From Pseudoalteromonas tetraodonis (GTDB lineage: Bacteria > Pseudomonadota > Gammaproteobacteria > Enterobacterales > Alteromonadaceae), in the NCBI RefSeq assembly GCF_002310835.1, contig NZ_CP011042.1, forward strand, positions 1 through 32,000: DNA of 32,000 nt, given 5' to 3'. The notes below the pieces were generated by a model that did not search any database, had not been told where the DNA came from, and saw only the letters and a list, made by a program, of their open reading frames with translations. Each line of letters opens with the position of its first letter. The first letter of the stretch is position 1. The position numbers were made by a program, and so were the translations under genes. Below, in pieces: positions 13,354 through 31,373 of the stretch.

Positions 13354-13387
13354 AGCCGCACACTAATTATTAGTATGCGGCTTTTTT
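13354..13387 (+). terminator. Rho-independent terminator of the peptidase gene
   Basis: AGCCGCACACTA...TAGTATGCGGCT stem followed by T6. Confidence 0.85.
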
Positions 13388-13493
13388 AATCAAAATGTAA
13401 CGGGGATTTACAGCTGGGTTTAAAGGTTAAAGGAACAAGGTCAAAGAATTTTAGTTACGGTAAGTTGGGTATAGCCGAACAAAACCCAACAAG
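13388..13493 (+). repeat. dispersed intergenic repeat, copy A (starts directly after a terminator T-tract)
   Basis: AATCAAAATGTAACGGGGATTTACAG...GTTGGGT..AACAAAACCCAAC aligns by eye with 18468-18576. Its 5' third also aligns with 21298-21345. Confidence 0.55.
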
Positions 13494-16359: not shown

Positions 16360-17334
16360 ATGAGCACTGATCTTACATTTACTATTAAAAGCACTAACTT
16401 GGATGAAAACTACCATCCATCAAATAACACACGTATTACGACCAATTTCGCTAATTTAGCAAGGGGTGAAAGCCGCCAACAAAACCTGCGTAATACCCTA
16501 AAAATGATCAACAATCGTTTTAATGCTTTGGCTAGTTGGGATAACCCACAAGGGGATCGTTACGAGGTTGAGCTCGAGATCATTTCGGTTGATTTAGACA
16601 TTGCAGGCAGTGGCCAAGCATTTCCGTCAATTGAGGTATTAAAAACCAATATTATTGACCACCAAACTAATGAGCGAATTGAAGGCATGGTGGGTAATAA
16701 CTTTTCATCCTATGTGCGCGACTACGACTTTAGCGTGTTATTGCTTGAGCATAACAAAAGCAAACCGCAATTTAGTATCCCCGATAATTTTGGTGACTTA
16801 CACGGTAAGTTGTTTAAATGCTTTGTAAACTCAGATACCTATAAACAGCATTTTAAAAAGCCGCCAGTTATTTGCTTAAGCGTGTCTGATAACAAAATCT
16901 ATCAGCAAACCGAAAACTTACACCCTATCTTAGGCGTAGAGTATCAGCCTAATGAGTCGTCGTTAACAGAGCAATACTTTAAAAAAATGGGCCTACAAGT
17001 GCGCTACTTTATGCCACCAAACAGCGTTGCACCGTTAGCGTTTTACTTTTTTGGTGACCTACTTAACGACTACAGCAACCTTGAGCTAATTAGCACTATT
17101 AGCACCATGGAAACGTTTCAAAAAATTTATCGTCCAGAAATTTATAACGCTAATGCCGCCGCAGGTAGTCGTTATAAACCAAATTTAAAAAATGATGATC
17201 ATTCATTAACGCAAATTGTGTATGACCGCGCAGAGCGAGGTCAATTAGCGGTTGAGCAAGGCAAATTTACCGAGCAGCACTTTATTAAGCCTTATCAGTC
17301 AGTGCTGCAGCAGTTCTCGGCAAGTATCGCTTAA
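16360..17334 (+). CDS. mesX: DUF1852-family protein (MesX-type partner of a core-MetE methionine synthase)
   Basis: 324-aa ORF immediately upstream of a ~346-aa core-MetE homolog. This DUF1852/MetE-like pairing is the MesX-MesD arrangement described in the literature. The family assignment itself is from memory of the pairing, not from a search. Confidence 0.65.
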   Translation: MSTDLTFTIKSTNLDENYHPSNNTRITTNFANLARGESRQQNLRNTLKMINNRFNALASWDNPQGDRYEVELEIISVDLDIAGSGQAFPSIEVLKTNIIDHQTNERIEGMVGNNFSSYVRDYDFSVLLLEHNKSKPQFSIPDNFGDLHGKLFKCFVNSDTYKQHFKKPPVICLSVSDNKIYQQTENLHPILGVEYQPNESSLTEQYFKKMGLQVRYFMPPNSVAPLAFYFFGDLLNDYSNLELISTISTMETFQKIYRPEIYNANAAAGSRYKPNLKNDDHSLTQIVYDRAERGQLAVEQGKFTEQHFIKPYQSVLQQFSASIA

Positions 17335-17365
17335 TCACACAACAAAATTAAAGGCAGCATTTATT

Positions 17366-18406
17366 ATGAAAAAACTATTACCCACTTCATCAGCAGGCAG
17401 CTTGCCAAAACCGTCATGGCTTGCTGAGCCCGAAACCTTATGGTCACCGTGGAAATTACAAGGTAGTGAGCTGATTGATGGCAAACACGATGCCCTGCGT
17501 ATTTCCCTGCACGATCAACAAACCGCAGGCGTAGATATAGTCAGCGATGGCGAACAAACTCGTCAGCACTTTGTAACCACCTTTATTGAACACTTAAATG
17601 GCGTTGATTTTGAAAACCGTAAAACAGTTAAAATTCGCGACCGTTACGACGCCAGCGTACCCACAGTGGTTGGCCCTGTGTCTCGTACTAAATCGGTATT
17701 TGTTGAAGACGCCAAGTTTTTACGCCAACAAACCAGCCAACCAATTAAATGGGCACTGCCTGGGCCCATGACCATGATCGACACCCTGTATGACGATCAC
17801 TATAAAAGCCGTGAAAAACTAGCATGGGAATTTGCTAAAATACTTAACCAAGAAGCCAAAGAGCTAGAAGCCGCTGGGGTTGATATAATTCAATTTGATG
17901 AACCTGCTTTTAACGTGTTTTTTGACGAGGTAAACGACTGGGGCATAGCCTGCCTAGAGCGAGCTATAGAAGGGTTAAAATGCGAAACCGCCGTGCATAT
18001 TTGTTACGGCTACGGCATTAAAGCCAACACCGATTGGAAGAAAACCCTCGGCACCGAGTGGCGACAATACGAAGAAGTATTCCCTAAGCTGCAAAAATCG
18101 AATATAGATATTATTTCGCTAGAATGCCAAAACTCACATGTACCCATAGAGCTACTCGAACTGGTGCGCGGTAAAAAAATAATGGTAGGCGCAATCGATG
18201 TAGCCACCAATACCATAGAAACTCCCGAAGAGGTGGCCAAAACCCTACGCGAAGCACTCAAATATGTTGATGCCGACAAACTCTACCCCTGCACCAACTG
18301 CGGCATGGCCCCCCTGCCCCGCAATATTGCAAACGGTAAGCTCAACGCCCTAAGCAAAGGCGCAGAGTTAGTACGTAACGAACTATTAGCAGCAAATGTC
18401 GCTTAA
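17366..18406 (+). CDS. mesD: core-MetE-type (single-barrel, cobalamin-independent) methionine synthase, MesD-like
   Basis: Start chosen at MKKLLPTSSAGSLPKPSWL (ATG 17366) rather than the upstream in-frame Met at 17252, which overlaps mesX. Motifs: GSLPKP, DGEQTRQHF, IQFDEPAF, HICYGY, C-terminal CTNCGM (Zn ligands). Confidence 0.85.
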   Translation: MKKLLPTSSAGSLPKPSWLAEPETLWSPWKLQGSELIDGKHDALRISLHDQQTAGVDIVSDGEQTRQHFVTTFIEHLNGVDFENRKTVKIRDRYDASVPTVVGPVSRTKSVFVEDAKFLRQQTSQPIKWALPGPMTMIDTLYDDHYKSREKLAWEFAKILNQEAKELEAAGVDIIQFDEPAFNVFFDEVNDWGIACLERAIEGLKCETAVHICYGYGIKANTDWKKTLGTEWRQYEEVFPKLQKSNIDIISLECQNSHVPIELLELVRGKKIMVGAIDVATNTIETPEEVAKTLREALKYVDADKLYPCTNCGMAPLPRNIANGKLNALSKGAELVRNELLAANVA

Positions 18407-18430
18407 TTTTTAGTTATAGCTGCTGTAAAA

Positions 18431-18467
18431 AGCCACACCTTAGCACATGTTGAGGTGTGGCTTTTTT
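18431..18467 (+). terminator. Rho-independent terminator of mesD
   Basis: AGCCACACCT...AGGTGTGGCT stem followed by T6. Confidence 0.9.
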
Positions 18468-18576
18468 AATCAAAATGTCATGGGGGTTTACACAACGAGG
18501 TTAAAGGCAAAAGGTGCTAGGTGAAAGGTTTAAGTTCGTTGAGTGTTAGTTGGGTTGAGTGCAACAAACCTAGCAA
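18468..18576 (+). repeat. dispersed intergenic repeat, copy B (left edge of the AT-rich island)
   Basis: AATCAAAATGTCATGGGGGTTTACAC...GTTGGGTTGAGTGCAACAAACC aligns with copy A (13388-13493). Confidence 0.55.
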
Positions 18577-18653
18577 AAGTAATTAAACCTAACCGAGCCG
18601 CAAGGTATTATTGATTGAGTAGGGAGTGTCATTTGCAGAGAAAGGCAACGCCC

Positions 18654-18744
18654 GCCTAACATGCATTGTGTTGGTGTGGCTTTTTGCGTTGCTTGCCAAA
18701 ACCATGGCAAAGTTACATTGTCCTTGTTTAACAGCTTTTTAGGC
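18654..18744 (-). mobile_element. attC-like site 1 (weakest of three)
   Basis: On the minus strand: GCCTAAA (contains the TAA stop of the 2-TM ORF) ... central hairpin TTGCCA/TGGCAA ... GTTAGGC (18660..18654). One core is imperfect. Part of the site duplicates the mesD terminator arm. Confidence 0.4.
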
Positions 18745-19446
18745 GCTTTTAGAGAGTACCTCATATTCTGGATTACCATATGAGCCAATTAATATATCTT
18801 CGCGTGTTTCTTCGCCTCTAGAATCAAAGAAATTGTAACCATCCAGATTCAGCTCGTTAGCAAGCTTTATTGCAACATCTATCTCTCGATTCTCTAAATA
18901 TTGGGAAATAGACATGATTCTCTTTTCAGGGACATCATTAGAACCAAAACTTGTAACTCTAAGTACGCCATTTGTAGAAAGTACCTCTTTGATACGATTT
19001 TTATCCGCTAAATGCTTATTGACACCAATAAGGAGTGAGGTTTCCGGTGCACCTTGGTTTGGCTCATTTACAAAACTCAGTTTAGATAACTTCTCTTCTA
19101 TTTTTTCTATAGAAATAGTTAACTCGTTTAATTGAACTTCGTTTTTAGGGACTTTAACTGGCTCGTTTGTCTTTTTATTTAAATAACTTGAATAATAAGA
19201 GTCTTCTTGTAGCTCTGGCCTAAATTTAGTTTGTAGTAAAAAAACAGAACCTAAAAATATTGGTACATTGATTATAGCCGCTAAAACTAATGCGCCAGAC
19301 TGCCATGAATTAACATCAAAATTTGCAGCGCCAACTAAGTAACAACTATTTATAGAAAACAGACCAACTAACCAAGCTCCAAGAAGTTGGATAGGTTTAG
19401 TAATTTTTTCAGGTTTAATTTGATTTTCTGACATACTTAGATGCAA
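18739..19446 (-). CDS. 2-TM membrane protein of unknown function (cassette ORF)
   Basis: 235 aa. Two predicted TM helices (LLGAWLVGLFSINSCYLVGAA and ALVLAAIINVPIFLGSVFLL), a short coiled-coil-like stretch, and a ~100-aa soluble C-terminal domain. The track start is TTG at 19446; ATG at 19434 (MSENQ) is the alternative, with AAGGAG upstream. Low GC. Confidence 0.7.
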   Translation of the reverse strand: MHLSMSENQIKPEKITKPIQLLGAWLVGLFSINSCYLVGAANFDVNSWQSGALVLAAIINVPIFLGSVFLLQTKFRPELQEDSYYSSYLNKKTNEPVKVPKNEVQLNELTISIEKIEEKLSKLSFVNEPNQGAPETSLLIGVNKHLADKNRIKEVLSTNGVLRVTSFGSNDVPEKRIMSISQYLENREIDVAIKLANELNLDGYNFFDSRGEETREDILIGSYGNPEYEVLSKSA

Positions 19447-19456
19447 CTCCTTAAGC

Positions 19457-19556
19457 GCCTAACGCCGCCTTGAGCGGTGAGTAATAGTTGGCTAAAATGT
19501 GAAGCGAAGCGGAACCGAGCCAACTGTTACGAACCGACTTTAAGCCCTTGTTAGGC
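19457..19556 (-). mobile_element. attC-like recombination site 2 (best example)
   Basis: 100-bp imperfect palindrome bounded by GCCTAAC (19457-19463) and GTTAGGC (19550-19556). Inner arms pair with bulges (AGTTGGCT/AGCCAACT, GTAAT/GTTAC, CGGT/ACCG). The TAA stop of the upstream ORF lies inside the core. Confidence 0.65.
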
Positions 19557-20621
19557 GAAATATTGCAACCCATACTTTTTACTATTTTCTTGAACATTTT
19601 CTAATGTTTCAATTTCTGAATAATACTTATAACCATGCCCCATATCAATTTCTTTACAGAAGATTAATCGCTCATAAGGTTCTTGGTTTTTTTCAGAGAA
19701 GTGACAGAAAATATGAGGGAAATAGTCATACTCATCTCCGTAAAAATTGATAGTTTCAATATTAACAAAGGGAATTTCACCTACAAGAAAAACTCTTTCG
19801 TCACCTTGCTCTCCACTTTTGGTATCTCTGAACCTTAAGCTTCCATCTTCACAGAGTGAAAGCGCTCCAGCTTTTAAAAAAACTTGAACTCCACGATGAT
19901 AAAGTTGAGCTAACTCAACCTTAAACCAAGGAGATATTCCATCATCATCTGATACTTCTGGGTAATTATCAACGCGATCTAAGTCGCGGAGAATAACCCT
20001 ACGCCTTAATTTCTCGTAATTTATTTTTTGAATATATTCAGATAACTGCTGTCTTACGGCTTCTTGGTGTTTAACTTTTTCACCATTACTGGAAAACTTA
20101 GGGCCTACAACTTTAGGCTGTTTAGCATAGGGTTTTAATGCGCTAACAAATGAATCAATTAGTTTTTTCTTAACTTCAGCTTTGTCAGATATATTTTTAT
20201 CACTTAATTCATAGCTAATAGGCCAACGCTTGTGAGCTAAATCGAAAGGAATATTACCATTTGCCTCACCAAAAGAAGTATTAATTACGTTAATAACTCT
20301 TTCATCGCCTAAAGCGTACATTGCATAGCCTAACTCTATTAGCACATTTGGGTTGGATAATGCTCTGCCACTTTCAGAAAATGACACAAAAGTAATATCA
20401 CCAATAAAAATATCACTGCTTTCTATTTTAGATAAAATAGTTGTAGCTATATCGGGAGATCCCGGAACGCCCTTCGTATCGTGATCTTCTCGCATCGATT
20501 CTTTAAGATCGAACTCTTGATTGACTTTCTTTACAGCTGCCTTAAGGCAATCTAGTTGAAAATATCGATTGTATTTCGCATTGATATCACTTTGCCAAGA
20601 ATAGAAAACCTTTATTGTCAC
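19551..20621 (-). CDS. TIR-like (COG4271 / nucleoside 2-deoxyribosyltransferase-like) N-terminal domain fused to an uncharacterised C-terminal domain (cassette ORF)
   Basis: 356 aa. GTG start with AAGG 8 nt upstream. N-terminus KVFYSWQSD...DIFIGDITFV...NPNVLIELGYAMYALGDERVINV matches the strand/acidic-residue/NVxxELGY-Glu layout of bacterial TIR-like effector domains. The C-terminal ~180 aa has no motif I recognise. Low GC. Confidence 0.6.
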   Translation of the reverse strand: MTIKVFYSWQSDINAKYNRYFQLDCLKAAVKKVNQEFDLKESMREDHDTKGVPGSPDIATTILSKIESSDIFIGDITFVSFSESGRALSNPNVLIELGYAMYALGDERVINVINTSFGEANGNIPFDLAHKRWPISYELSDKNISDKAEVKKKLIDSFVSALKPYAKQPKVVGPKFSSNGEKVKHQEAVRQQLSEYIQKINYEKLRRRVILRDLDRVDNYPEVSDDDGISPWFKVELAQLYHRGVQVFLKAGALSLCEDGSLRFRDTKSGEQGDERVFLVGEIPFVNIETINFYGDEYDYFPHIFCHFSEKNQEPYERLIFCKEIDMGHGYKYYSEIETLENVQENSKKYGLQYFA

Positions 20622-20644
20622 AGATATGCCTTAATTTGAGTTTC

Positions 20645-20701
20645 GCCTAACATTTTAGTATTTATGCGACACGCTGTTTGTGTTGCATAATCGCTTGTTG
20701 G
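20645..20701 (-). mobile_element. attC-like site 3 (short, 57 bp)
   Basis: GCCTAAC (20645-20651) ... TTATGCGACA/TGTTGCATAA inner arms ... GTTGGAC (20695-20701, fits GTTRRRY). On the minus strand it sits directly upstream of the TIR-like cassette. Confidence 0.5.
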
Positions 20702-21297
20702 ACTGAGCCGCTACCTGCTCGGTGTATCAGAGTTGGTGTTGTTTATGCTATGGACTTTTTATATAAAAGAAGGGCTTTTTATGACCTAAGCTAAATCAGC
20801 TAATTTAATCAGCTGACCAATTATAATTTAAGCTTTCCCTGCGTCGCTCAGTGTTCATTATTTATCCATTAAACCTAATATTTAACCGTTAAGCAAGGAT
20901 ATTTTTCGCTCGCACAGCCGCTATTAGCCTGAGCAGTTAAGCAGGTTAACTCATTGATTTGATGCAGCAACCAAGGCAGCTAACTTTTTCGAACTATTTC
21001 ATTCGTAGCAATACCTGAGGTTATCCCTCCGATACAAAGGACAAAGGAGGAAAATCTTAACTTCAGGCATCAAATACTTTGGCTGACCCATTATCAATAT
21101 TTTGCTTATCAGTAACAGTCTAAAACAATAAGATAAACAAATAACCCCTACTTTTAGCTATTACTTAGTTTGATTTCTAACTAGCACTTACAAACTCAAC
21201 AGTCCTTCTACCCATTCTAAAACAAAGCGTGTGTTTTGGGTTTGTTCGCGCTGCTGATTAATTACTTTATCAACCCCCACCTACATGCGGTATTTTT

Positions 21298-21345
21298 AAC
21301 CAAACCGTAACGGGGGTTTACAGCAACGGCTTAAAACGCGGGTGC
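21298..21345 (+). repeat. dispersed intergenic repeat, partial copy C (right edge of the AT-rich island)
   Basis: AACCAAACCGTAACGGGGGTTTACAGCAACGG matches the 5' part of copies A and B. An inverted fragment of the AACAAACCCA word occurs at 21237-21248. Confidence 0.45.
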
Positions 21346-21429
21346 TGTTACTGTACTTTATTAACTGATAAGGTGATTAAGCGAAGCAATAAAATTGCGT
21401 TTTAGTAACGATTTAAACAGGAGTCATTA

Positions 21430-22110
21430 ATGGCAACTACACTGGCGTTTGATGTATACGGTACGCTTATAAACACTCATGGCGTGGTGTCGTTACTTGA
21501 AAATATGATTGGTGATAACGCGCACGCATTTTCAACTACCTGGCGTGAAAAGCAGCTTGAATACTCGTTTAGACGCGGCTTAATGCAAAACTACGTGCCG
21601 TTTTCTGTGTGTACTGAGCAGGCACTTAATTATGCGTGTTTACTGCACAAGGTAACTTTAAGCGATGAGCAAAAAGCACAGTTATTAGCACGTTATAAAA
21701 CCCTCCCCGCATTTGATGATGTAAAAGCGGGGCTTGAGAGCTTAAAAGCACAAAACTATCGGTTGTTTGCGTTTTCTAATGGTGCGGCCAGTGCGGTAAA
21801 TACCTTGCTCGAAACGGCGGGTATAAGTGAGCTTTTTGAAGGTGTGGTGAGCGCCGATGATATTAAAACCTTTAAACCCAACCCCGGTGTTTATAGTCAT
21901 TTTTTACGTCAGGCAAATTCAACATGCGCTAATACCTGGTTGATATCGAGTAACCCGTTTGATGTTATTGGGGCGTTATCGCATGGTATGCGTGCTGCGT
22001 GGATACAGCGCTCAAGTGAGGCTATTTTTGATCCCTGGGAACTAACGCCTACAACAACGGCGTGCGATATACATGATTTAAAAACCAAGCTAGCCAGTAA
22101 TAACCAATGA
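21430..22110 (+). CDS. haloacid dehalogenase, type II (HAD superfamily)
   Basis: 226 aa. Nucleophile motif AFDVYGTL, then FSNG, KPNP, and a C-terminal SSNPFDVIGA block typical of L-2-haloacid dehalogenases. Confidence 0.85.
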   Translation: MATTLAFDVYGTLINTHGVVSLLENMIGDNAHAFSTTWREKQLEYSFRRGLMQNYVPFSVCTEQALNYACLLHKVTLSDEQKAQLLARYKTLPAFDDVKAGLESLKAQNYRLFAFSNGAASAVNTLLETAGISELFEGVVSADDIKTFKPNPGVYSHFLRQANSTCANTWLISSNPFDVIGALSHGMRAAWIQRSSEAIFDPWELTPTTTACDIHDLKTKLASNNQ

Positions 22111-22144: not shown

Positions 22145-22177
22145 GGCTAGGTTTGCGCTTACAAACCTAGCCGTTTT
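22145..22177 (+). terminator. probable intrinsic terminator of the dehalogenase gene
   Basis: GGCTAGGTTTG cgctta CAAACCTAGCC followed by GTTTTA. Confidence 0.6.
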
Positions 22178-22444
22178 AGGGTCTGTTGATCTTTCAAGGT
22201 TAAATTTGCAGCAGTCTGTTTGGTATTTAGGCAAGGCAGAGCCTATGTGGTGTGGTTATTCCCCATAAATAGGCGATAACGCAGCATCAATGCCAAACAG
22301 GCGCTGCCCTTCGGGTTCTGCCTAGGGGCGATTTACTCTTTGTTGCTCGGTTTTTACTTAGCCCACTAGGTTACAAACCTCGCGCCGCGATTAAACCGCC
22401 CCTAGTTTGAACAAATTTTAATCCGCAAAGGTCAACAGACCCTA
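22177..22444. repeat. 268-bp inverted-repeat-bounded, internally highly palindromic element (MITE-like or structured RNA)
   Basis: Terminal inverted repeats TAGGGTCTGTTGATCTTT (22177-22194) and AAAGGTCAACAGACCCTA (22427-22444), with a 12-bp perfect core. Nested internal stems: GCAGCAGTCTGTTTGG/CCAAACAGGCGCTGC, AGGCAGAGCC/GGTTCTGCCT, CCTAGGGGCG/CGCCCCTAG. Confidence 0.5.
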
Positions 22445-22894
22445 GTCTTTAATTGCAATGGCAATTTCTATTTCGTTACTGTTTTTATAATACTCAAAAT
22501 CACTGGTGTAAGTACGTTCATAGCGGCAATCGTCTGAGCTGAAGTATTGCCAAATTTCGCCCCATAAATCGATTACTGCATCGGGCATTTCACCTTCACC
22601 TTTAAATACCAAATAACGCCCCGCTTGGGTGGTTACTTTTTTAGCTTCAGGGAGTTTAATTGATAAATTATCGCAGCAGGCAATTACGTCAAAATCGCCA
22701 GTGAGATCGCTTTCGTAATTAGTATACACACCATACACTTTGGTGTTTTGGGTAAGGCTGTTGGCAAACTTTTCACCAAATTTTTGCCAAAGTTCAGCTA
22801 TATTTGCAGTGCCAGCGTTCATTTCATTGGCGTTGCAGGTTCTTACTTTTAAGCCGATTAAGGTCTGACTTGCTAATTGTTTTACTTCCATCAT
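22442..22894 (-). CDS. GyrI-like (SbmC/AraC-effector-binding fold) small-molecule-binding protein
   Basis: The pattern LIGLKVRT...IAELWQKF...VYGVYTNYESD...FDVIACC...AGRYLVFKGEGEMPDAVIDLWGEIWQYF is typical of stand-alone GyrI-like domains. The likely start is MMEVKQ (22894 or 22891, with AAGGA upstream). The track ORF extends to 22924. Confidence 0.75.
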   Translation of the reverse strand: MMEVKQLASQTLIGLKVRTCNANEMNAGTANIAELWQKFGEKFANSLTQNTKVYGVYTNYESDLTGDFDVIACCDNLSIKLPEAKKVTTQAGRYLVFKGEGEMPDAVIDLWGEIWQYFSSDDCRYERTYTSDFEYYKNSNEIEIAIAIKD

Positions 22895-23210
22895 GACGTC
22901 CTTTAGCGTTAATACAAACACCAACGTAACAGAAAAACCGCCAATACTTTAAATTTTGTATTAAATATTTCATAAACAGTGATTATTGAGCTCAATTGCG
23001 TGTTTATTGCTCATGTTTAAATAGGTGCCAATCGCTAAACGTGGCTTTGCTACCGCTAAAATAATTGCTCAATTCCCCCTTTTTTAACTTTATTTTTGCA
23101 TGTAATGCTTGTCGTTTAATAATATGGCTTATCGATTTTTGTTAAAAATATACGACAAGCTTATTAGCTCTAATTTAAAAAAAGTTGTTATCTAATCCTT
23201 TTTCATTATT

Positions 23211-23252: not shown

Positions 23253-24812
23253 GTGTACTCAAGGAATGTTGATGTGTCTCAATCTCACGTGTTAAATATT
23301 AATACCATTGAAAAACAGGCTGTATTTGAACAAAGCGGCCTGCCCCCACAATTCAATTTAGAGCAGTTCATTAATTATCAAATAGCGTCTTTGCAAGGGT
23401 TGTCGGCGGTACAGCAAGCGATGGCTAAAGCCCAAAAGCCATTTTCAGGTGTGTCGGTAAATGCGTTAGCAAAAGTAGTAAACGATGTTGATTTATCAAA
23501 GCCTTTGGCTGACTTTCCGGCGGTGCTTGAAGAGCTAAAAGGCGTGTATTTAGATCATGCCGTGTATTTTCATCATCCTCGCTACATGGCGCATTTAAAC
23601 TGCCCTGTAACCTATCCTGCTGTGGTGGCCGAACACATTATTGCTGCTATTAATACCTCGGTAGATACGTGGGATCAAAGTGCAGGTGCGACCTTAATTG
23701 AGCAAAAGCTGATTGATTGGACATGCCAAAAAGCAGCATTGCCAAGCACTGCCGATGGAGTATTTACTAGTGGCGGCACACAATCAAACTTAATGGCAAT
23801 GTTAGTTGCTCGTGAAGTAGCAGTTAGCCGATATGCGCCAGAACATCAGGTAAAACTTCAGGGCTTACCAGCTGTTGCCTCGCGCTTTAAAATTTACTGC
23901 TCTGAGGTGGCGCATTTTAGTATTCAAAAAGCGGCGGCGTTATTGGGGCTCGGTTACAACGCTGTGGTGCCGGTGGCTACAAACAGCGAAATGCAAATGG
24001 ATATGCATGCACTTAAAACCGCCATAGCAACAAGCAAAGCGCAAGGCGATTTACCCATTGCAGTGGTTATTACCGCAGGTACAACCGATTTTGGCTCAAT
24101 CGATCCAATCCATAATATTGTCATGCTAGCTAAAGAAGAGCAGCTATGGTGCCACGTAGATGGCGCTTATGGCGGCGGTTTGTTGGTGAGCGAGCACCAC
24201 CGAAATGCGCTTAATGGCATTGAGTTGGTTGATTCAATAACGATTGATTATCACAAATCATTTATGCAACCGGTTAGTTGTAGTGCCTTTTTATTAAGTG
24301 ACAAACGCCATTTTAGCCACATTACTTTATATGCCGATTATTTAAACCCATTAGCAGAGGCTGGAAATGGCACGCCTAATTTGGTTGATAAAAGCCTACA
24401 AACCACCCGCCGTTTTGATGCCTTAAAGTTATGGCTAACACTGCGCACCACTGGAGAAGCACCGCTGGGTCGCGCGTTCGATAAAGTTATTGGCCTTGCG
24501 CGCCAAACGCATATTGTACTTAACGACCATCCCGACTTTGAAGTAGTAAATTACCCCGAGCTTAGTGCCTTGGTATTTAGATTTGCCCCTGATGATTTAA
24601 AACATGACCTTGATTTACTCGACTCTTTAAACCTGCATGTACGACAAACGTTTTTACAAACCGGTGAAGCCATGGTTGCCCGTACAAAAATAAATGGTCG
24701 TCATTACCTTAAATTTACATTGCTTAATGCGCAGTGCCAATTAACAGATGTACGCGCTGTTATTGAGAAAATTAGCCACATTGCATGGCAAACTTATAGG
24801 GAAATTGCATAA
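23253..24812 (+). CDS. PLP-dependent group II amino-acid decarboxylase (DesA/BibA; diaminobutyrate, lysine or ornithine decarboxylase type)
   Basis: 519 aa. PLP-lysine motif ITIDYHKSF, and TSGGTQSNL. First gene of the hydroxamate siderophore operon. The track start is GTG 23253; GTG 23274 has a better AAGGA Shine-Dalgarno. Confidence 0.9.
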   Translation: MYSRNVDVSQSHVLNINTIEKQAVFEQSGLPPQFNLEQFINYQIASLQGLSAVQQAMAKAQKPFSGVSVNALAKVVNDVDLSKPLADFPAVLEELKGVYLDHAVYFHHPRYMAHLNCPVTYPAVVAEHIIAAINTSVDTWDQSAGATLIEQKLIDWTCQKAALPSTADGVFTSGGTQSNLMAMLVAREVAVSRYAPEHQVKLQGLPAVASRFKIYCSEVAHFSIQKAAALLGLGYNAVVPVATNSEMQMDMHALKTAIATSKAQGDLPIAVVITAGTTDFGSIDPIHNIVMLAKEEQLWCHVDGAYGGGLLVSEHHRNALNGIELVDSITIDYHKSFMQPVSCSAFLLSDKRHFSHITLYADYLNPLAEAGNGTPNLVDKSLQTTRRFDALKLWLTLRTTGEAPLGRAFDKVIGLARQTHIVLNDHPDFEVVNYPELSALVFRFAPDDLKHDLDLLDSLNLHVRQTFLQTGEAMVARTKINGRHYLKFTLLNAQCQLTDVRAVIEKISHIAWQTYREIA

Positions 24813-26131
24813 TGGATAATCAACCTTACGATTTTATAGCTATTGGCCTTGGGCCATTTAACTTATCTTTAGCGTGTTTAAGTGAACCGCTCGAAGATGT
24901 AAAAAGCCTGTTTTTAGAGCAGCGCAGTGAATTTGATTGGCACCCAGGAATGATGCTTGAGGGCGTTACATTACAAACTCCGTTTATGTCGGATTTAGTA
25001 ACCATGGCAGATCCAACCAGCCAGTATAGCTTTTTAAATTATGCCAAATTAAATAATCGTTTATACCCGTTTTATATTCGCGAAAGCTTTTTTTTATTGC
25101 GCCGTGAATACAACTTATATTGCCAATGGGTTTGCTCGCAGCTTTCAAATGTTAACTTTGAACAAACAGTCACTCACGTTGAATTTTGCCCGCAAAGTGA
25201 GTGTTATACCGTTAGCTGTAACACCCCTAATGGCATACAACATTATGTGACTCGCCATATTGTTTTGGGCACAGGGCCTGCACCGTATATTCCTGATTGC
25301 GCTGTGCAAAGTAACTCAAATAACGTAATGCACAGTAGCGATTTTTGTCATCGGCTTGATGAATTAAAAGCGGCTAAACGGGTTACCGTGGTAGGGGCTG
25401 GACAAAGTGCAGCAGAAATTTACCACACCTTATTGCAGCAAGCAGTACCGCAAGGCTTGCAGTTAGATTGGATAGCACGCTCACCGCGCTATTTTCCGCT
25501 TGAGTATACTAAACTCACCCTTGAAATGACCTCTCCTGAGTATGTAGATTACTTTTATAATTTAAAAACTGAGCAGCGAGATTGGCTCAATCAAAACCAA
25601 AAAAATCTATTTAAGGGCATTAATGGCGATTTAATTAACGACATTTTCGACACCCTCTACGCGCAAAGCCTTGATGGGCCAATTTCTACTACATTTAAAA
25701 CTAACAGCAGGCTAACAGGTACTCAAAAAGTAGGTAAGCGTTTACTGACTGAGTTTTATCATCAGGAGCTTGAGCAGCCCTTTTCAATAGAAACCGACTT
25801 TTTAATTTGCGCCACGGGCTTTAAATATCAGCGCCCTGCTTTTTTAAATAATATTGCCCATCAACTACCCCAAGATGAGCAAGGTCGTTATTTAGTGAGC
25901 CGTGACTATGCGGTAGATACAGAGCAAAAACGTATTTTTGTACAAAATGCTGAGCAGCATACTCATGGTTTTGTAACTCCAGATTTAGGTATGGCTTGCT
26001 ACCGTAATAGTATTATTTTACGTGAAATTTTAGGTTATTCGCCTTATCAGGTTGAGCAAAAAATTGCTTTTCAAAACTTTGATTTAAGTGATGTCACCCT
26101 ATCAACACAACAGCAGAGTAGCGCCGCATGA
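24812..26131 (+). CDS. diamine/lysine N-hydroxylating flavin monooxygenase (IucD/AlcA/DesB/BibB family)
   Basis: 439 aa. FAD motif DFIAIGLGPFNLSLA, NADPH motif VVGAGQSAAEI. The start overlaps the upstream stop (TAATG). Confidence 0.9.
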   Translation: MDNQPYDFIAIGLGPFNLSLACLSEPLEDVKSLFLEQRSEFDWHPGMMLEGVTLQTPFMSDLVTMADPTSQYSFLNYAKLNNRLYPFYIRESFFLLRREYNLYCQWVCSQLSNVNFEQTVTHVEFCPQSECYTVSCNTPNGIQHYVTRHIVLGTGPAPYIPDCAVQSNSNNVMHSSDFCHRLDELKAAKRVTVVGAGQSAAEIYHTLLQQAVPQGLQLDWIARSPRYFPLEYTKLTLEMTSPEYVDYFYNLKTEQRDWLNQNQKNLFKGINGDLINDIFDTLYAQSLDGPISTTFKTNSRLTGTQKVGKRLLTEFYHQELEQPFSIETDFLICATGFKYQRPAFLNNIAHQLPQDEQGRYLVSRDYAVDTEQKRIFVQNAEQHTHGFVTPDLGMACYRNSIILREILGYSPYQVEQKIAFQNFDLSDVTLSTQQQSSAA

Positions 26132-27306
26132 GTCTTCGTTTAGCGCTAATTTTGCTGACGGTTATTTCGGTGGTATGCGATACCTTGCTGCTACCGTTTT
26201 ATCCGCAATTTTTTGCTAGTGAATTTGCTATTAGTAACGCCACTCTAATCGGCCTCTTTGTGGCTAACTGTTGTATTACTGTAATGCTGGCTTTACCGCT
26301 ATGGGCTAAGGTCGCTAAAAAATACAATGAATTGGCTTTGTGGTTAGTAACCCAAGTAGTAGCCGCTGGTTTTGGCCTGCTTTGCTACTTTGCGACCAAT
26401 GTGTGGGAGTTTTGGGTTTACTACCAACTTATGTTGGTGCTCAAGGCAAGCTACCTACTTATATACCCATTTGCACTGCGATTAGAGCAACAAACTAAGC
26501 ATTTATCTATTATTGGTTTGTTTTCTGTATTGATGCATTTTGGTGCGATTGGTGGTGCTTTAATTGGTGGTTACTTCTTTAGTTTAGCAGAGCCACGCTA
26601 TGCGTTATTACTCAGTAGTGCCGGTGACCTAATCCAGGTTTTATTATGCGCCTACTTAATGTATTCATTAAAAACAGGTATTTATCAGCAAGTAATAGCG
26701 ACTGAAAAACCGCGAGAACGTATTCCCTATTTTATTTGGCAATTTTGCTTTTTAAGTGTGGTGGTTTATTTTAGCGCGTTTTTAATTCGCCCTTTCTTTA
26801 CTACTCATTGGCAAGCATTAAACGCACAAAGCAGCACCTTGCAAAGCGCTGTTGTATACGCCATTCCTGCTTTTTCAGCGCTTGTTATGCTGGTTTTTAA
26901 CCATTTCAGGCAGCATCTACCACTGCCAACATTAAGCCGCACTAGCACTTTGTTATGTGCACTTATTTTAGGGGCGCTTGGGCTTTATTTACAAGCGCAG
27001 GCGTCGGTGGGGTTAGTGATTTTATCACGTGTTTTATATGGCTTTGCGCTATTTCAAGTGATGGTACTGCTAGAGGTAATGCTATTTGCTAAAAGTGAGC
27101 CTGCACATTACGGCAGCGACTTTGCCAAAGTGCACATTGCTCAAAATATCGGGGTTATTTTAGCGTCGTTACTAGTGGGTATGAGCGTAGAGCATCTTTC
27201 AACCACGGTTGTGTTTTACTTTGCTGCCATTGGCTTTGCAAGCCTTGCCTTTATTTTGCTTTGGCGGGTTAAGGCTGTTGCTCGAACTGCGCGTTCAGCG
27301 TCTTAG
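26128..27306 (+). CDS. MFS transporter (probable siderophore exporter)
   Basis: 392 aa with about 12 hydrophobic segments. ATGA overlap with the monooxygenase gene. Embedded in the biosynthetic operon. Confidence 0.75.
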   Translation: MSLRLALILLTVISVVCDTLLLPFYPQFFASEFAISNATLIGLFVANCCITVMLALPLWAKVAKKYNELALWLVTQVVAAGFGLLCYFATNVWEFWVYYQLMLVLKASYLLIYPFALRLEQQTKHLSIIGLFSVLMHFGAIGGALIGGYFFSLAEPRYALLLSSAGDLIQVLLCAYLMYSLKTGIYQQVIATEKPRERIPYFIWQFCFLSVVVYFSAFLIRPFFTTHWQALNAQSSTLQSAVVYAIPAFSALVMLVFNHFRQHLPLPTLSRTSTLLCALILGALGLYLQAQASVGLVILSRVLYGFALFQVMVLLEVMLFAKSEPAHYGSDFAKVHIAQNIGVILASLLVGMSVEHLSTTVVFYFAAIGFASLAFILLWRVKAVARTARSAS

Positions 27307-27330
27307 TTTTTAAGATTTATTGGAGTTTTT

Positions 27331-29679
27331 ATGTATTTTTCATCTTTTGTAAGCACCCTACAGCATACCGGCAAAGTAACGATGCGGTTATTACAGCAAA
27401 CAGATATGCCAACAATATGCGATTGGCTTAAGCAACCGTATGCGCACTTTTGGGGGATGCAGCAGCAAACCGAGCAACAAATAACTAAAGCGTATCAAGC
27501 TATTATTGATACGCCTCATCATCAGGCATACGTGATCGAGCAAAATAATAACCTATTGGCTTTAGTTGAGCTTTATAGCCCAGAGCACGAAAGCTTAATG
27601 AAAGCGGCGTACGAAGTTGAACCGAATGATGTGGGTATGCATATTTTATTAGCGCCTAACACGGCACCTAAGCACCATTTTAGTTTTGAAATGATGCAGT
27701 GCGTGCTGCAAAGTATTTTTGCTCAAAACAGCGCCGCTCGTGTTGTGGTTGAGCCTGACATTGCTAATAGTAAAATTCATACATTAAATAAGCGTTTGGG
27801 GTTTGTGCATACCCAGCAAATTCAACTGGGCGAAAAAGCCGCTTATTTAGGCTTTTGTAATAAAGCAGCCTTTGATAGGCACAGCCAACTATTTACTGAT
27901 TCGTTAGCGCCTTTACAAACTGATTACGTGATACAGCCACATTGGCAATGGGCAAATCGGCATTTACAAGCTAAAGCACTCACCGAGCTTGTGCACGAGC
28001 GTTTATTGGCCGCAGAGACAACAAAGCAAGGCTTTAAAGTGAATGTTGAAGGCGGTTACTTTATTTTTAATGGCCGTGCTATGGCACTAAACCATATTGA
28101 TATAGACGAGCCAAGCCTATGCTTTTACAACCTTAACGAAGAGCTGCAGCCGCTAGATGTGTTGCACTTTTTTAGTATGCAAGGGCCTGCGCTAGGTTTA
28201 ACGGGTAAGCGCCTTGCCACCTACCTTGAAGAGCTAAATGCTACTTTAGCCAGTGCGTGCTTTAAACGCGAAAATAACACCTTAACAGCGGCGCAGTTAG
28301 CTAATTTAGGGCTGCAAAAAATAGAAGCTGCAATGAGTGAAGGTCACCCTGCGTTTGTGGCTAATAATGGCCGCATTGGTTTTAGTAAAGCTGACTTTTT
28401 ACGTTATGCGCCAGAAGTAGGCAAACCGTTTAAAATACTGTGGTTAGCAGCGCATAAAGCGGTATGCGACTTTGCCCATAGTGAATACTTTGCCGATTAC
28501 CCAAGCCATATAAGTGATGAGCTAGATTTAACCACCCGAGATGCGTTTAACAAAGCGCTAAAAGCTCAAAACCTTAACCCCGATGATTACTTACTCATTC
28601 CTGCTCACCCTTGGCAGTACCAACACAAATTGAGTGTGGTATTTGCAAATGAGTTGGCAAATCAGCGATTAGTGTATTTAGGTGAAGGTGACGATTTATA
28701 TCAAGCGCAACAATCAATTCGGACCTTATATAATTGCTCGCACCCGCATAAGCCGTATTTAAAAGTGGCGTTGTCGATTTTAAATATGGGATTTATGCGT
28801 GGCCTATCGCGTGCTTACATGGCGGTGACTCCTGCCATTAACGATTGGGTATTTGAAAAGGTTAGCCAAGATCAACAACTCGCAGGCGCTAATTTTACAG
28901 CGCTTAGAGAATACGCCACCTTAGGTTATGCCCATCATACGTTTGAGCAACACGCCCTTGGGGATACACCCTATCGTAAAATGTTTGCCTGCTTATGGCG
29001 AGAAAACCCAAACCATAATTTAAATAGTGATGAACAACTGACCACTATGGCAGCGTTATTACACTTAGATAATAATGGCCAAAGTTTAGTGGGCGAATGG
29101 ATAGCGCAAAGTGGTTTGAGCACGCAGCAGTGGTTACATGAGTACTTTAATGCCTATTTAATTCCGCTAGTACATTGCTTTTACGCGCATAAATTAGTGT
29201 TTATGCCCCACGGTGAAAACCTCATTTTAAAGCTTAAAAATTCGGTGCCAGTGGGCGCATATATGAAAGACATAGGTGAAGAGGTTGCCTTACTTAATAG
29301 CACTGAAGTATTGCCTGCAGGGGTTGAACGTATTCATGTTTCTATGCCTAAAGAGCTTGAGCTGTTAAGTATATTTACCGATGTATTTGACTGCTTCTTT
29401 AGATACTTAGTGGCAATTTTAGTGCGAGAAGAGCGTATTACAGAGCATGACTTTTGGCAGTGTGTTACGCAAAGTGTTAAAGCATATCAACATGCTAACC
29501 CTGCTTTAAATGAGCGATTTAAAGAGTATGACTTTTTTAGTGATGAGTTTGCTCACTCTTGTTTAAACCGCTTACAGCTGGGTAATAATGAGCAAATGGT
29601 TGATTTAACGGATCCGGCAGGTAGTTTGCAGTTTGCTGGTAACTTAAACAACCCCGTATCGGCAAAGCTGTATGGCTAA
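27331..29679 (+). CDS. fused N-hydroxydiamine acyltransferase (IucB/AlcB/DesC-like) and IucA/IucC NIS synthetase (BibC-like)
   Basis: 782 aa. The N-terminal ~180 aa carries WLKQPYAHFWGM and VVVEPDIANSK (siderophore acyltransferase type). It is followed by IucA/IucC hallmarks IPAHPWQ, QSIRTL and MPHGENL, and a C-terminal FhuF-like helper region. Confidence 0.9.
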   Translation: MYFSSFVSTLQHTGKVTMRLLQQTDMPTICDWLKQPYAHFWGMQQQTEQQITKAYQAIIDTPHHQAYVIEQNNNLLALVELYSPEHESLMKAAYEVEPNDVGMHILLAPNTAPKHHFSFEMMQCVLQSIFAQNSAARVVVEPDIANSKIHTLNKRLGFVHTQQIQLGEKAAYLGFCNKAAFDRHSQLFTDSLAPLQTDYVIQPHWQWANRHLQAKALTELVHERLLAAETTKQGFKVNVEGGYFIFNGRAMALNHIDIDEPSLCFYNLNEELQPLDVLHFFSMQGPALGLTGKRLATYLEELNATLASACFKRENNTLTAAQLANLGLQKIEAAMSEGHPAFVANNGRIGFSKADFLRYAPEVGKPFKILWLAAHKAVCDFAHSEYFADYPSHISDELDLTTRDAFNKALKAQNLNPDDYLLIPAHPWQYQHKLSVVFANELANQRLVYLGEGDDLYQAQQSIRTLYNCSHPHKPYLKVALSILNMGFMRGLSRAYMAVTPAINDWVFEKVSQDQQLAGANFTALREYATLGYAHHTFEQHALGDTPYRKMFACLWRENPNHNLNSDEQLTTMAALLHLDNNGQSLVGEWIAQSGLSTQQWLHEYFNAYLIPLVHCFYAHKLVFMPHGENLILKLKNSVPVGAYMKDIGEEVALLNSTEVLPAGVERIHVSMPKELELLSIFTDVFDCFFRYLVAILVREERITEHDFWQCVTQSVKAYQHANPALNERFKEYDFFSDEFAHSCLNRLQLGNNEQMVDLTDPAGSLQFAGNLNNPVSAKLYG

Positions 29680-30310
29680 ACCGATTACCCTTGCGCAGTT
29701 TTTATATTGCCATCAACCCGTACAACGAACTTTTAAACCGAGCTTATTATTAGTGCGCGCTTTAACAGTTCGTTGTAAGGCGCAGTACCCGACTGCGCCT
29801 AAGCAATTTATTAGTCGGCATTTGTATTTGCAGCTTTGTTGGCAAGCTATTTACGCTTATTGCTATTGGTTTGCTTGCAAGCAAAGTACGGCTGACCCCA
29901 TTAACATGCCGTTAGCGGTAAATGGCGCTTATTGTCGTGGGTTTAACCTGAATAATGGCGTGTTAGTAAGTAAAGCTGAGCAAACCAAAGCGTTTACTCA
30001 TTTTATAAGCCAAGTTGGTGAATGGGTAAATACCGACTACGCGCTGGGTAAAAAAGAACAAGCACGGTTATTACTCGATTCGTTAAGTAGTGCTATTGAG
30101 CGAGCTCATAGCTTAGCCCTTGCAACCACTTTACATATCAATAATTGCCATCGTCAGCTGCATACCCTTATTTGTGAGCACTTTAGCCTTGATGCGCCAT
30201 TTACTGAAAACCCCCAGCGTTTAACCTGTTGCCGCTATTATTTAGCCGGTTATAGCAAATGCCAAACCTGCCCTAAAAAGGATATTAAAACCAATGAACC
30301 AACGTCTTAA
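29672..30310 (+). CDS. FhuF-like ferric-siderophore reductase, (2Fe-2S)-binding
   Basis: 212 aa. C-terminal CC-x9-C-x2-C cluster (LTCCRYYLAGYSKCQTCP) resembles the FhuF C-terminal iron-sulfur motif. Overlaps the end of the synthetase gene. Confidence 0.7.
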   Translation: MAKPITLAQFLYCHQPVQRTFKPSLLLVRALTVRCKAQYPTAPKQFISRHLYLQLCWQAIYAYCYWFACKQSTADPINMPLAVNGAYCRGFNLNNGVLVSKAEQTKAFTHFISQVGEWVNTDYALGKKEQARLLLDSLSSAIERAHSLALATTLHINNCHRQLHTLICEHFSLDAPFTENPQRLTCCRYYLAGYSKCQTCPKKDIKTNEPTS

Positions 30311-31373
30311 AACGATTGATCTTGCGCGTGGTGCGAGCGTTTTCATTATGATTATTGTGCATACCTTATGGATGTATGCCACCACAGCGCTTCAAAGTGA
30401 AAGCGCATTTGGTACGGTTGTACATATACTTGGCAAAGGCACCGCCTCGTTTTTGGTGGCAATGGGGCTATCTATGGCGCTTTCGCGCAGGCAAACACCC
30501 TTGCTATTAATTAAGCGTGGTTTACAGCTTTTACTGCTTGCCTATTTAATGAATGCGGCCAAGTTTTGGCTACCTATTGAAGTATTTAATACCATGCCCG
30601 AGGCGTTTATAAATGCTTATGGCTGGCAAAGTCCGCTCAGTGCTGGGCAGTTACAATTTATGGTGTTAACAGGTGATATTTTACAACTGGCTGGAGTTAG
30701 CTTATTGCTGTTTGGTGTGCTTAATATTGCCCGTTGGAAAACAATATGGATTGCGGTTTTAGCCATTGCAATTGCAGTTATGAGCCAGTTTGTGAGGGGG
30801 CAACAATTTACGCTTTCACCTTATATTAGCGATTTGTTTTTTGCTAATAACTATCAAGTGTATTTTCCGGTATTTCCTTGGATAAGTGCGATATTAACGG
30901 GGTATGTACTTGGTCGTTTATACCTTAGTAATCAACAAAATGCCGATTACTTATATAAAGTATGTGCACAACTTGGTGCTGCTTTACTTGTTATTGGCGG
31001 CATATGGTTAGCCATTGATTTTAAAGGACAGTTTGGCAACTTTTTCCATTTAAATGGCGGCGGTATTAGCTATTTAGTTGGCTTAAATTTATGTGCCCTA
31101 GCGGCTATACAGTATATTTTTGCTGATAAATATAATGGTCCTATTACACGTGCTCTTTTATATGCCAGTAAACATGTAACCGCGCTATATGTTATTCAAT
31201 GGGTACTTATTTGCTGGTTTATGGGGGCGCTTGGTTATCATACCCTTAGCCTTTGGCCGACACTTTGTATGATGGTACTAATGACTTTACTGACTTTTGC
31301 TGTGCATAAGGTTTATTTAAAAAGCAAACAGAGCTTCACAGACATTACGCAAAAAACTAAACGTACAGCTTAA
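30294..31373 (+). CDS. DUF1624 / acyltransferase-3-like polytopic membrane protein
   Basis: 359 aa with about 10 TM segments. The N-terminus KTIDLARGASVFIMIIVH resembles the R..S.D..RG.a...M...H start of DUF1624 / heparan-glucosaminide-N-acetyltransferase-like proteins. Overlaps the fhuF-like gene by 17 nt. Confidence 0.6.
   Translation: MNQRLKTIDLARGASVFIMIIVHTLWMYATTALQSESAFGTVVHILGKGTASFLVAMGLSMALSRRQTPLLLIKRGLQLLLLAYLMNAAKFWLPIEVFNTMPEAFINAYGWQSPLSAGQLQFMVLTGDILQLAGVSLLLFGVLNIARWKTIWIAVLAIAIAVMSQFVRGQQFTLSPYISDLFFANNYQVYFPVFPWISAILTGYVLGRLYLSNQQNADYLYKVCAQLGAALLVIGGIWLAIDFKGQFGNFFHLNGGGISYLVGLNLCALAAIQYIFADKYNGPITRALLYASKHVTALYVIQWVLICWFMGALGYHTLSLWPTLCMMVLMTLLTFAVHKVYLKSKQSFTDITQKTKRTA

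Follow-up and report, generated by a model that had tools for sequence, protein, structure and literature searches.

A probable strain-variable, integrase-less integron cassette array between mesD and a dehalogenase gene in Pseudoalteromonas tetraodonis

We analyzed the first 32,000 nucleotides of Pseudoalteromonas tetraodonis contig NZ_CP011042.1 (assembly GCF_002310835.1), hereafter called the window, in which two open reading frames (ORFs) on the minus strand, ORF1 and ORF2, lie between mesD and a gene encoding a haloacid dehalogenase (HAD)-type protein. A prediction made from the sequence alone (the original prediction) had described this interval as an array of integron gene cassettes without an integrase, and our analysis bears this out: by mechanism and anatomy, it is best classed as an integrase-less integron cassette array of the CALIN type (cluster of attC sites lacking an integron integrase). 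Very probably, the segment from 18.6 to 21.0 kb is the surviving part of a strain-variable array that occupies a hot spot between mesX-mesD and the HAD gene. The evidence consists of homology breakpoints at core sites, homologues in Vibrio superintegrons, the score of one attC site (site 2), the lack of an integrase or a remnant of one in the window, and cassettes that differ between relatives with the same variable mesD-HAD spot.

The cassette carrying ORF2 was found in a Pseudoalteromonas metagenome-assembled genome (MAG; L013/L014) at 93.6% identity, and the similarity was confined to window positions 20651-19459. Both breakpoints coincide with G|TTAGGC cores, and the flanks on both sides in the MAG are other cassettes. 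A homologue of the ORF2 protein (P0010, 71% identical) is encoded by the first cassette after attI in Vibrio vulnificus, where the adjacent integrase passes the curated model TIGR02249 (476 bits) and the array lies downstream of thrS-infC-rpmI-rplT. The same gene follows a Vibrio cholerae repeat (VCR) in two further Vibrio arrays, and the cassette start TTAGGCRAAA is common to the window cassette and the Vibrio copies, after attI and after VCRs alike. Judged from these sequence comparisons, the ORF2 unit is a genuine integron gene cassette, that is, a discrete G|TTRRRY-bounded unit found in different arrays. Across the whole interval, homology breakpoints place three recombination junctions, at 20651|20650, 19463|19462, and 18649|18648.

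The original prediction had named three imperfect palindromes bounded by integron-type cores, which we call sites 1, 2, and 3 in order of increasing coordinate. We scored them with a covariance model, R1, used as a proxy attC model, whose seed comprised 14 Vibrio VCRs and 5 Pseudoalteromonas-type attCs, all from other loci and none from the window or its homologue. The structure imposed on R1 (an R box, an L box with one bulge, and two inner helices) is supported by covariation, as 87.8% of the cells were paired and 0 of 500 shuffles were equally good, and the model recovered attCs outside its seed (L013B at 46.5 bits and the third L102 site at 23.3 bits). Only site 2 was recognized, at full length and on the cassette strand, with 47.9 bits (E 3.5e-10); site 1, at 10.9 bits (E 1.2), did not rise above noise, and site 3 was absent from the matches at E ≤ 10. 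Site 2 also folded better than its shuffles (z -3.9 to -4.2), differed from the L013 copy of this attC by compensatory stem changes (GTAA/TTAC versus ACAAAAA/TTTTTGT), and had two extra bases on the top-strand 5' (R''/L'') arm, as VCRs do. A strict detector that combined a regular expression with folding (RYYYAAC...GTTRRRY, paired end to end) retained sites 2 and 3 as the only pairs folding end to end among 18 candidates in 32 kb. It was specific in the window and missed most true VCRs in Vibrio controls; we used it as a specificity check only. A scan against Rfam, at the gathering threshold and at E ≤ 1, returned nothing relevant, and the heptamer GCCTAAC by itself showed no enrichment in the window (8 observed versus 4.9 expected). 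The palindromes at sites 2 and 3 stood (z -3.9 and -3.1), whereas site 1 is not palindromic beyond its ends of 7 to 9 nt. As for the view that all three are canonical attCs, it holds for site 2; site 1 is degenerate, and site 3 forms the terminal hairpin of an IS91-family module described below.

ORF1 is a cassette with a decayed attC. Metagenome contig L102 carries this cassette at 85% identity, and the homology extends from exactly 19463 to 18720, covering the ORF1 gene and the first 25 nt of the attC (18744-18720), beyond which the window diverges. The L102 attC is intact (96 nt, 70 bits with R1, fold z -4.5), whereas site 1 shows no attC fold (z -0.25 to -0.35). The cores originally assigned to site 1 needed correction at both ends: the upstream heptamer is GCCTAAA instead of GCCTAAC, and related attCs place the real downstream core at GTTGCCT (18649-18643), the GTTAGGC taken for it being the L' box. 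Since the 3' end of the site, GTTAGGCGGGC|GTTGCCT, fits the family pattern GTTAnnnGGGC|GTTRRRY, the crossover most likely lies at G(18649)|TTGCCT. A Vibrio homologue of the ORF1 protein (P0127, 57% identical) is encoded by a single cassette between VCRs in V. parahaemolyticus arrays (L010-L012). We considered whether ORF1 and ORF2 form a two-gene system and rejected this idea, as they are not neighbors in any other locus; never being adjacent elsewhere, they are independent cassettes. In L102, the cassette adjoining the ORF1 homologue (997-1983) encodes a defense-type protein, pP_pnuc_1/pP_pnuc_2 (predicted pPIWI-associated nuclease).

The remaining layout agreed with that of a cassette array as originally drawn. 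The two minus-strand ORFs exist (18739-19434/19446, 231/235 amino acids [aa], and 19551-20621, 356 aa), both terminate in ...GCC TAA within a core-like heptamer, and both start 22 to 23 nt after a GTTAGGC. The drop in GC content was real as well: hand counts of 15/60, 23/60, and 30/60 in single lines of sequence were reproduced exactly, and ORF1 (34.1%) and ORF2 (34.8%) have the lowest GC content of all the ORFs in the window, against a window mean of 40.3%. A GC content as low as that of the cassette block occurs in only 3% of 2-kb windows.

Useful relatives for a comparison of the locus were found through the members of the HAD protein cluster. Strains whose flanks are 92 to 98% identical to those of the window carry other cassettes between the same junctions. 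The P. tetraodonis MAG L106 has flanks 94 to 97% identical, on the left up to 18659 and on the right from ~21108 and from 21286; between them lie three different cassettes. One contains a cupin gene, one is an ORF-less unit made up of tandem repeats, and one contains a gene for 231 aa that is unrelated to ORF1; two of the three bear attCs that score 51 to 52 bits with R1. Its cassettes are followed by a LysR gene and a flavodoxin-like gene that are both missing from the window. The ORF-less cassette (L106 6680-6900, minus strand) consists of about five AT-rich tandem repeats of ~45 nt followed by a well-scoring attC. L113 and L138, whose MesD proteins are 98% and 96% identical, contain yet other cassettes in a different order between the same tail and a full IS91-type module. 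The tail, a fixed flank after the last cassette, is homologous in L106/L108 (87%), L113, and L138, and directly follows a different last attC in each case; in P. aliena it is not present beyond 18496. In L113, the tail is joined straight to an intact attC that is related to site 2, at the equivalent of window position 18652; this junction places the crossover at G|TTGCC. Strain 3J6 has the HAD gene with a different upstream neighbor. The different contents between the same flanks indicate genuine cassette turnover, which makes the interval a hot spot. The comparison of this junction across relatives that had been suggested with the original prediction found a mesD-HAD interval with differing cassettes. 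A scan of MesD contigs found the HAD gene downstream in 0 of the 80 listed loci, which did not include the closest species and so gave no test of an empty site, and the plasmid collection held no further copy of the locus. In two other Pseudoalteromonas loci, the cassette region is interrupted by a gene for an IS200/RAYT-like transposase of 324 aa that has GC-rich hairpins close by (L013 2410-3384 and L104 2101-3075).

Site 3 led to a different element. It ends at 20703, not at 20701, and has R''/R' cores (GTCCAAC...GTTAGGC) at a cassette junction; its structure departs from that of a canonical attC, with a spacer of 5 nt versus 1 nt on the opposite arm and no bulges, and no R1 match overlapped it in the window or in 100 loci containing the module described next. 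An exact 21-mer of site 3 occurs in 106 metagenome contigs. In all 106, one side of the hairpin is a conserved module of 2.3 to 2.5 kb encoding a 277-aa tyrosine recombinase and, downstream of it, a 347-aa IS91-family transposase, both transcribed toward the hairpin. The other side is distinct in 95 of the 106 contigs, and there the cassette strand begins ...ACTAAAATG|TTA[G/T]RY. When R1 was run on 100 of the module loci, it found 90 significant attCs, 88 of which lay on the cassette side, all in cassette orientation, in 56 loci. The same arrangement is present on an annotated Pseudoalteromonas megaplasmid, with three attCs and no annotated integrase within 7 kb.

The identity of the module was clear from its full-length copies. 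The L130 transposase matches PF04986 (E 1.7e-49), PF14319 (E 2.7e-20), and NF033538 (359 bits, cutoff 125), and the full-length relatives encode the Y2 HUH transposase with an N-terminal zinc-binding domain by which the IS91 family is recognized. The recombinase is 30 to 33% identical to IntI. It falls below the TIGR02249 cutoff (175 versus 265 bits) and lacks, relative to two bona fide IntIs, the IntI insertion of ~30 aa and a further 9 aa, so that it is not an integron integrase by this test. The window retains only the last ~390 bp of the module, which accounts for most of the ORF-free stretch noted in the original prediction (20702-21429; 0 ORFs of at least 40 aa); the stretch also contains what is left of a LysR/flavodoxin segment (Table 1). 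This remnant is 77 to 83% identical to the module end in ~100 loci and 86.8% identical to annotated IS91-family elements of Pseudoalteromonas replicons, and no coding remnant of the transposase or recombinase was found in the window copy.

The other end of the module reads G|TTGAAC.... It follows a canonical attC in L164 and L214, the attI region of a curated intI (456 bits) in L117, and a second, tandem copy of the module in L155. Elsewhere, it follows a conserved "head" of ~230 nt whose junction ends ...CACTATTAAATTG|TT; in L106, what comes after this head is an ordinary cassette. The two ends of the module, at the head and at site 3, have related sequences and form direct repeats around it; in L187, L195, and L205, there are short deletion derivatives in which the head is fused to the end hairpin. 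Being joined to attC or attI at one end and to cassette starts at the other, the module behaves as a large cassette with site 3 as its "attC." We dropped the idea that site 3 is an attI beside a lost intI, since the conserved side in the 106 loci is an IS91-family module, and the idea that it is a plain IS91 oriIS unrelated to integrons was weakened by the G|TTGAAC junctions of the other end with attC and attI. ISShvi3-like IS91 elements with an accessory tyrosine recombinase have been noted in Shewanella integron variable regions (PMC9229058). The relatives of the remnant likewise encode an IS91 transposase and an upstream tyrosine recombinase, and the full-length ones sit in integron variable regions beside attCs, whereas the window retains the noncoding 3' end only. 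We did not find the cassette-like packaging of the module (a G|TTGAAC start and a G|TTRRRY end, in 95 contexts) described in the literature examined.

No integron integrase gene was detected in the window, as originally stated. The integrase domain PF00589 had 0 matches in a Pfam scan of all ORFs of at least 90 aa in the 32 kb, and tblastn with a curated IntIA against the window gave a best E value of 0.77, that is, neither an integrase nor a remnant of one. An intI remnant in the ORF-free stretch, which we had considered, was likewise not detected by this tblastn search. The array thus has no integron integrase nearby, within the limits of the window, as expected of a CALIN.

We propose the following anatomy and history. 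Read along the minus strand, the array comprises the ~390-bp module end, the ORF2 cassette with its intact attC, the ORF1 cassette with its decayed attC, and the tail from G|TTGCC onward; elsewhere, the module often stands at the head of arrays. The cassettes would owe their insertion and exchange to an integron integrase working in trans, encoded elsewhere in the genome or by an incoming element, with strand exchange presumably occurring at G|TT on the folded bottom strands of the attCs. In the simplest history, one later deletion would have taken the array's head together with most of the module and the LysR and flavodoxin-like genes. ORF2 may in principle still be excisable between site 3 and site 2, and ORF1 is probably locked in place.

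Several observations weigh against this reading. Only one of the three sites passes R1, site 1 being at noise level and site 3 unscored, and a promoter scan upstream of ORF2 found no promoter-like site. The P. aliena locus consists of 9.8 kb of unrelated genes with no R1-scoring attC, so the array is neither old nor universal within the genus. Under the IntegronFinder definition, a CALIN must contain two or more attCs recognized by the attC covariance model and separated by less than 4 kb. With one attC decayed and one atypical, a strict two-attC rule may instead classify the window as a SALIN, i.e., a single attC lacking an integrase (bioRxiv 10.1101/2022.09.11.507474). Compared with the CALIN class as described (PMC4889954), in which 38% of CALINs have a neighboring insertion sequence (IS), the array is alike in its co-oriented, promoterless-looking cassettes with G|TTRRRY cores, in the absence of intI within ~10 to 18 kb on either side, in its two-cassette size, in carrying cassettes of unassigned function, and in the neighboring IS remnant. 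It differs in having one canonical attC, one decayed attC, and one atypical IS91-type end hairpin and in its position at a fixed hot spot of the chromosome, where the head and tail junctions are conserved and the cassettes turn over between strains that are nearly identical. The comparison with the Vibrio superintegrons and their VCRs is similarly mixed. Homologues of ORF1 and ORF2 (57 to 71% identical) occur there as single cassettes, the cassette start is common, the stop codon lies within R'' in both, and the attCs are built alike (an R box, a spacer, an L box, extra bases along the R''/L'' arm, and a stem that is long and variable). In contrast, the window has no intI or attI and two cassettes versus dozens to hundreds, and its attCs are of the Pseudoalteromonas type, 86 to 117 nt long with the loop motif CGCTTCGCT..ATTTTAGC, versus VCRs of 126 to 129 nt.

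Three other explanations were weighed against an array served by an integrase in trans. The array could belong to the IS91-family module, whose IntI-like recombinase would capture and exchange cassettes through site 3 and the head while the transposase moves the platform. Consistent with this, at least 56 loci have the module directly upstream of an array in a single orientation, 95 distinct cassette starts adjoin it, and the module-headed array on the complete megaplasmid replicon has no annotated integrase within 7 kb. Furthermore, the recombinase is the closest non-IntI relative of integron integrases, and the related module ends would provide a pair of direct repeats. In IntI, the insertion of ~30 aa contacts the extrahelical bases of attC; the module recombinase lacks this insertion and the end hairpin likewise lacks bulged bases. 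However, the downstream cassettes carry bulged canonical attCs, which score with a model derived from classical attCs, and such attCs need the IntI-specific domain. The module is also itself inserted after a classical attC (L164 and L214) or at the attI of a bona fide intI (L117), as expected of a passenger cassette, and its recombinase stays below the integron-integrase cutoff. Moreover, the megaplasmid, pPBSW1, carries a classical intI elsewhere, as reported (PMC9229058). We therefore regard a module-driven array as improbable.

Insertion of the two cassettes one by one, by an integrase acting at genomic GWT sites (the attG route), appears more improbable still. Single cassettes and small CALINs of two cassettes are frequent and may originate via genomic sites (bioRxiv 10.1101/2022.09.11.507474), and the tail core GTTGCCT misfits GTTRRRY as a hybrid between an attC and a genomic site would. 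Yet the same tail junction and, in relatives, the same head junction were reused with different cassettes in at least four strains, and the cassettes are contiguous, co-oriented, and joined core to core to the module. Finally, there is hardly any chance that the interval is an ordinary low-GC accessory island with no integron element, whose palindromes are terminators or chance matches. Such an island would fit the lack of GCCTAAC enrichment, the unfolded site 1, and the empty Rfam scan, but not the homology breakpoints that fall exactly at cores in two independent contexts, the Vibrio superintegron homologues, the E value of site 2, or the fact that sites 2 and 3 are the sole core pairs in the window that fold end to end. 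An array served by an integrase in trans thus remained the reading that we favor.

The origin of the common integrase-less arrays is debated, with integrase loss, IS-mediated splitting, and insertion at genomic sites as the candidates. The mesD-HAD locus offers a natural series in this respect, with near-identical flanks, the same junctions, and different cassettes, and with an IS91-type module that is full in some strains and a stump here. Cassette turnover, array decay through the loss of an attC fold, and the role of an IS are therefore directly comparable at one locus. It is conceivable, though we hold it to be unlikely, that the ISShvi3-like module is a dedicated companion of cassette arrays, either an attC/attI-targeting IS or a self-sufficient capture platform, that seeds, moves, and perhaps services integrase-less arrays. 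If so, the module would go some way toward explaining why CALINs are abundant in marine Gammaproteobacteria. The observation that the module abuts 95 cassette starts and behaves as a cassette may interest integron specialists more than the array in the window.

Defense and toxin functions are common among integron cassettes. According to the original prediction, neither cassette protein has an obvious characterized homologue; ORF2, however, has relatives, and its N-terminal domain appears TIR-like. ORF2 has >3,500 homologues of patchy taxonomic distribution (Vibrio, Colwellia, Nitrosomonas, and Nitrospira), among 29 of which FYSWQ.D and E96 are invariant. In its AlphaFold model (mean confidence score pLDDT, 77.8), a flavodoxin-like domain at the N terminus is followed by a helical linker and, at the C terminus, by a beta-rich domain. 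The top Foldseek matches were the TIR domain of a TIR-STING protein (9lmr, E 4e-4), MilB, DNPH1, nucleoside deoxyribosyltransferases, and the TIR domains of SARM1 and RUN1, with probabilities of 0.97 to 1.0 but a template modeling (TM) score of ~0.3 over the whole chain. At the sequence level, ORF2 matches PF10137 with E 0.005 and 17.2 bits, under the gathering threshold of 24.7; several homologues have precomputed matches to this family, and a UniRef entry names an ORF2-type protein after the PF10137 domain. The match to a PADLOC TIR effector was weak (E 0.037), and sequence searches of the PDB with ORF2 gave no match. We tentatively suggest that ORF2 could be a single-protein TIR-like effector that cleaves NAD+ or nucleotides (a glycosidase), with a C-terminal sensor domain. 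It counts against this assignment, and against the corresponding part of our overall reading, that it rests on a subthreshold Pfam match and on fold matches with a TM score of ~0.3. In the model, the N-terminal ~140 residues appear to share the fold of the TIR effectors of CBASS, Pycsar, and Thoeris (PF10137, CAP12-PCTIR_TIR; TIR-STING), and the conserved glutamate lies in the matching motif. Unlike these systems, ORF2 is a single-gene cassette with no cyclase or other partner gene, and its C-terminal domain matches no known nucleotide-sensor domain. The cassette would thus supply a candidate TIR-like effector, encoded by a single gene, that is in circulation in Vibrio superintegrons as well.

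ORF1 has 677 homologues, again of patchy taxonomic distribution, and is predicted to be a membrane-anchored protein. In its AlphaFold model (pLDDT, 77.8), the only structural match of the C-terminal domain found with Foldseek was the C-terminal, LytR_C-like domain of Rv0431 (2m5y, E 7e-3).

The coordinates of the array and of the features around it are collected in Table 1.

Table 1. Features of the mesD-HAD interval on the window, with reference copies of the IS91-family module
Feature	Position	Strand	Remarks
mesD terminator hairpin	18427..18466	+	19-nt arms, 89% complementary, then T run; end of the conserved left flank gene
Left copy of intergenic motif TGYGGYWTTTTTAAYCAAAMYGTAACGGGGGTTTACA	18456..18505	+	Outside the cassette array
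Fixed "tail" flank after last cassette	18497..18648	-	Begins TTGCCT on the minus strand
Site 1, degenerate attC	18643..18744	-	R'' GCCTAAA 18744-18738; L' GTTAGGCG; R' GTTGCCT 18649-18643
ORF1 gene cassette (TTAGGC...G)	18649..19462	-	Bounded by the L102 homology start and the tail junction 18649|18648
ORF1	18739..19434	-	231 aa; two N-terminal membrane helices (predicted), C-terminal LytR_C-like domain
Site 2, intact attC	19457..19556	-	R'' GCCTAAC 19556-19550; R' GTTAGGC 19463-19457
ORF2 gene cassette (TTAGGC...G)	19463..20650	-	1188 bp
ORF2	19551..20621	-	356 aa; N-terminal TIR/nucleoside-deoxyribosyltransferase-like domain, helical linker, C-terminal beta-rich domain (model)
Site 3, terminal hairpin of ISShvi3-like module	20645..20703	-	59 nt; R''-like GTCCAAC 20703-20697; R' GTTAGGC 20651-20645
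3' remnant of IS91-family (ISShvi3-like) module	20651..21034	-	~390 bp, no coding capacity
LysR/flavodoxin segment remnant	21130..21260	.	78.6% identical to L106 8119-8249 (LysR 3' end and downstream), 84% to L105
Right copy of intergenic motif	21286..21335	+	Upstream of HAD gene; conserved there in L105, L106, and L107
HAD gene	21430-22110	+	Right flank
Full-length module copies, examples	L130 3494-5770; L217 7001-9336		

The interval had also been thought to be bracketed by direct copies of a dispersed repeat. The copies are real and were located more precisely (Table 1), and they are not tied to the insertion. The left and right copies are 72% identical, a third copy lies near 13376-13440, and the motif TGYGGYWTTTTTAAYCAAAMYGTAACGGGGGTTTACA follows terminators at all three window positions. 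It keeps the same places in relatives whatever intervenes, which makes it a preexisting intergenic motif and not an insertion footprint; for the same reasons, we rejected the repeats as target duplications. The motif is ~45 nt long, directly follows rho-independent terminators, contains the imperfect palindrome TGTAAC-GGGGG-TTTACA, and is kept at matching positions in other Pseudoalteromonas species; it has no Rfam match. It may be a protein-binding site.

Upstream of the interval, the window contains a TauE gene on the minus strand followed on the plus strand by MesX and Meth_synt_2, the latter being mesD, which ends at 18406. The mesX-mesD pair (16360-18406; L015-L094) encodes a DUF1852 protein and a MetE-like "methionine synthase." The protein identity of this pair is 85 to 91% across Vibrio, Pantoea, Pseudomonas, Burkholderia, Achromobacter, and others, and such unusual similarity in distant genera suggests that the pair has recently spread by horizontal transfer. 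On the other side, the HAD gene is followed by a Cass2/GyrI-like gene and a siderophore-type cluster (23253-31373). This cluster, which is kept in relatives, encodes a pyridoxal phosphate (PLP)-dependent decarboxylase, a Lys/Orn N-monooxygenase, an MFS exporter, a GNAT-IucA/IucC-FhuF fusion, and an acyltransferase. The gene at 22442-22924 (minus strand) matches PF14526 Cass2 ("integron-associated effector binding protein," E 7e-24); in the window, this gene is resident and conserved, lacks an attC, and is missing from P. aliena. Between the HAD and Cass2 genes lies an insertion of 268 bp (22177-22444) that resembles a miniature inverted-repeat transposable element, with 31-nt terminal inverted repeats. 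It is present at this spot in L106/L107 and absent from L103 and L105, and two further copies occur in P. aliena (L104).

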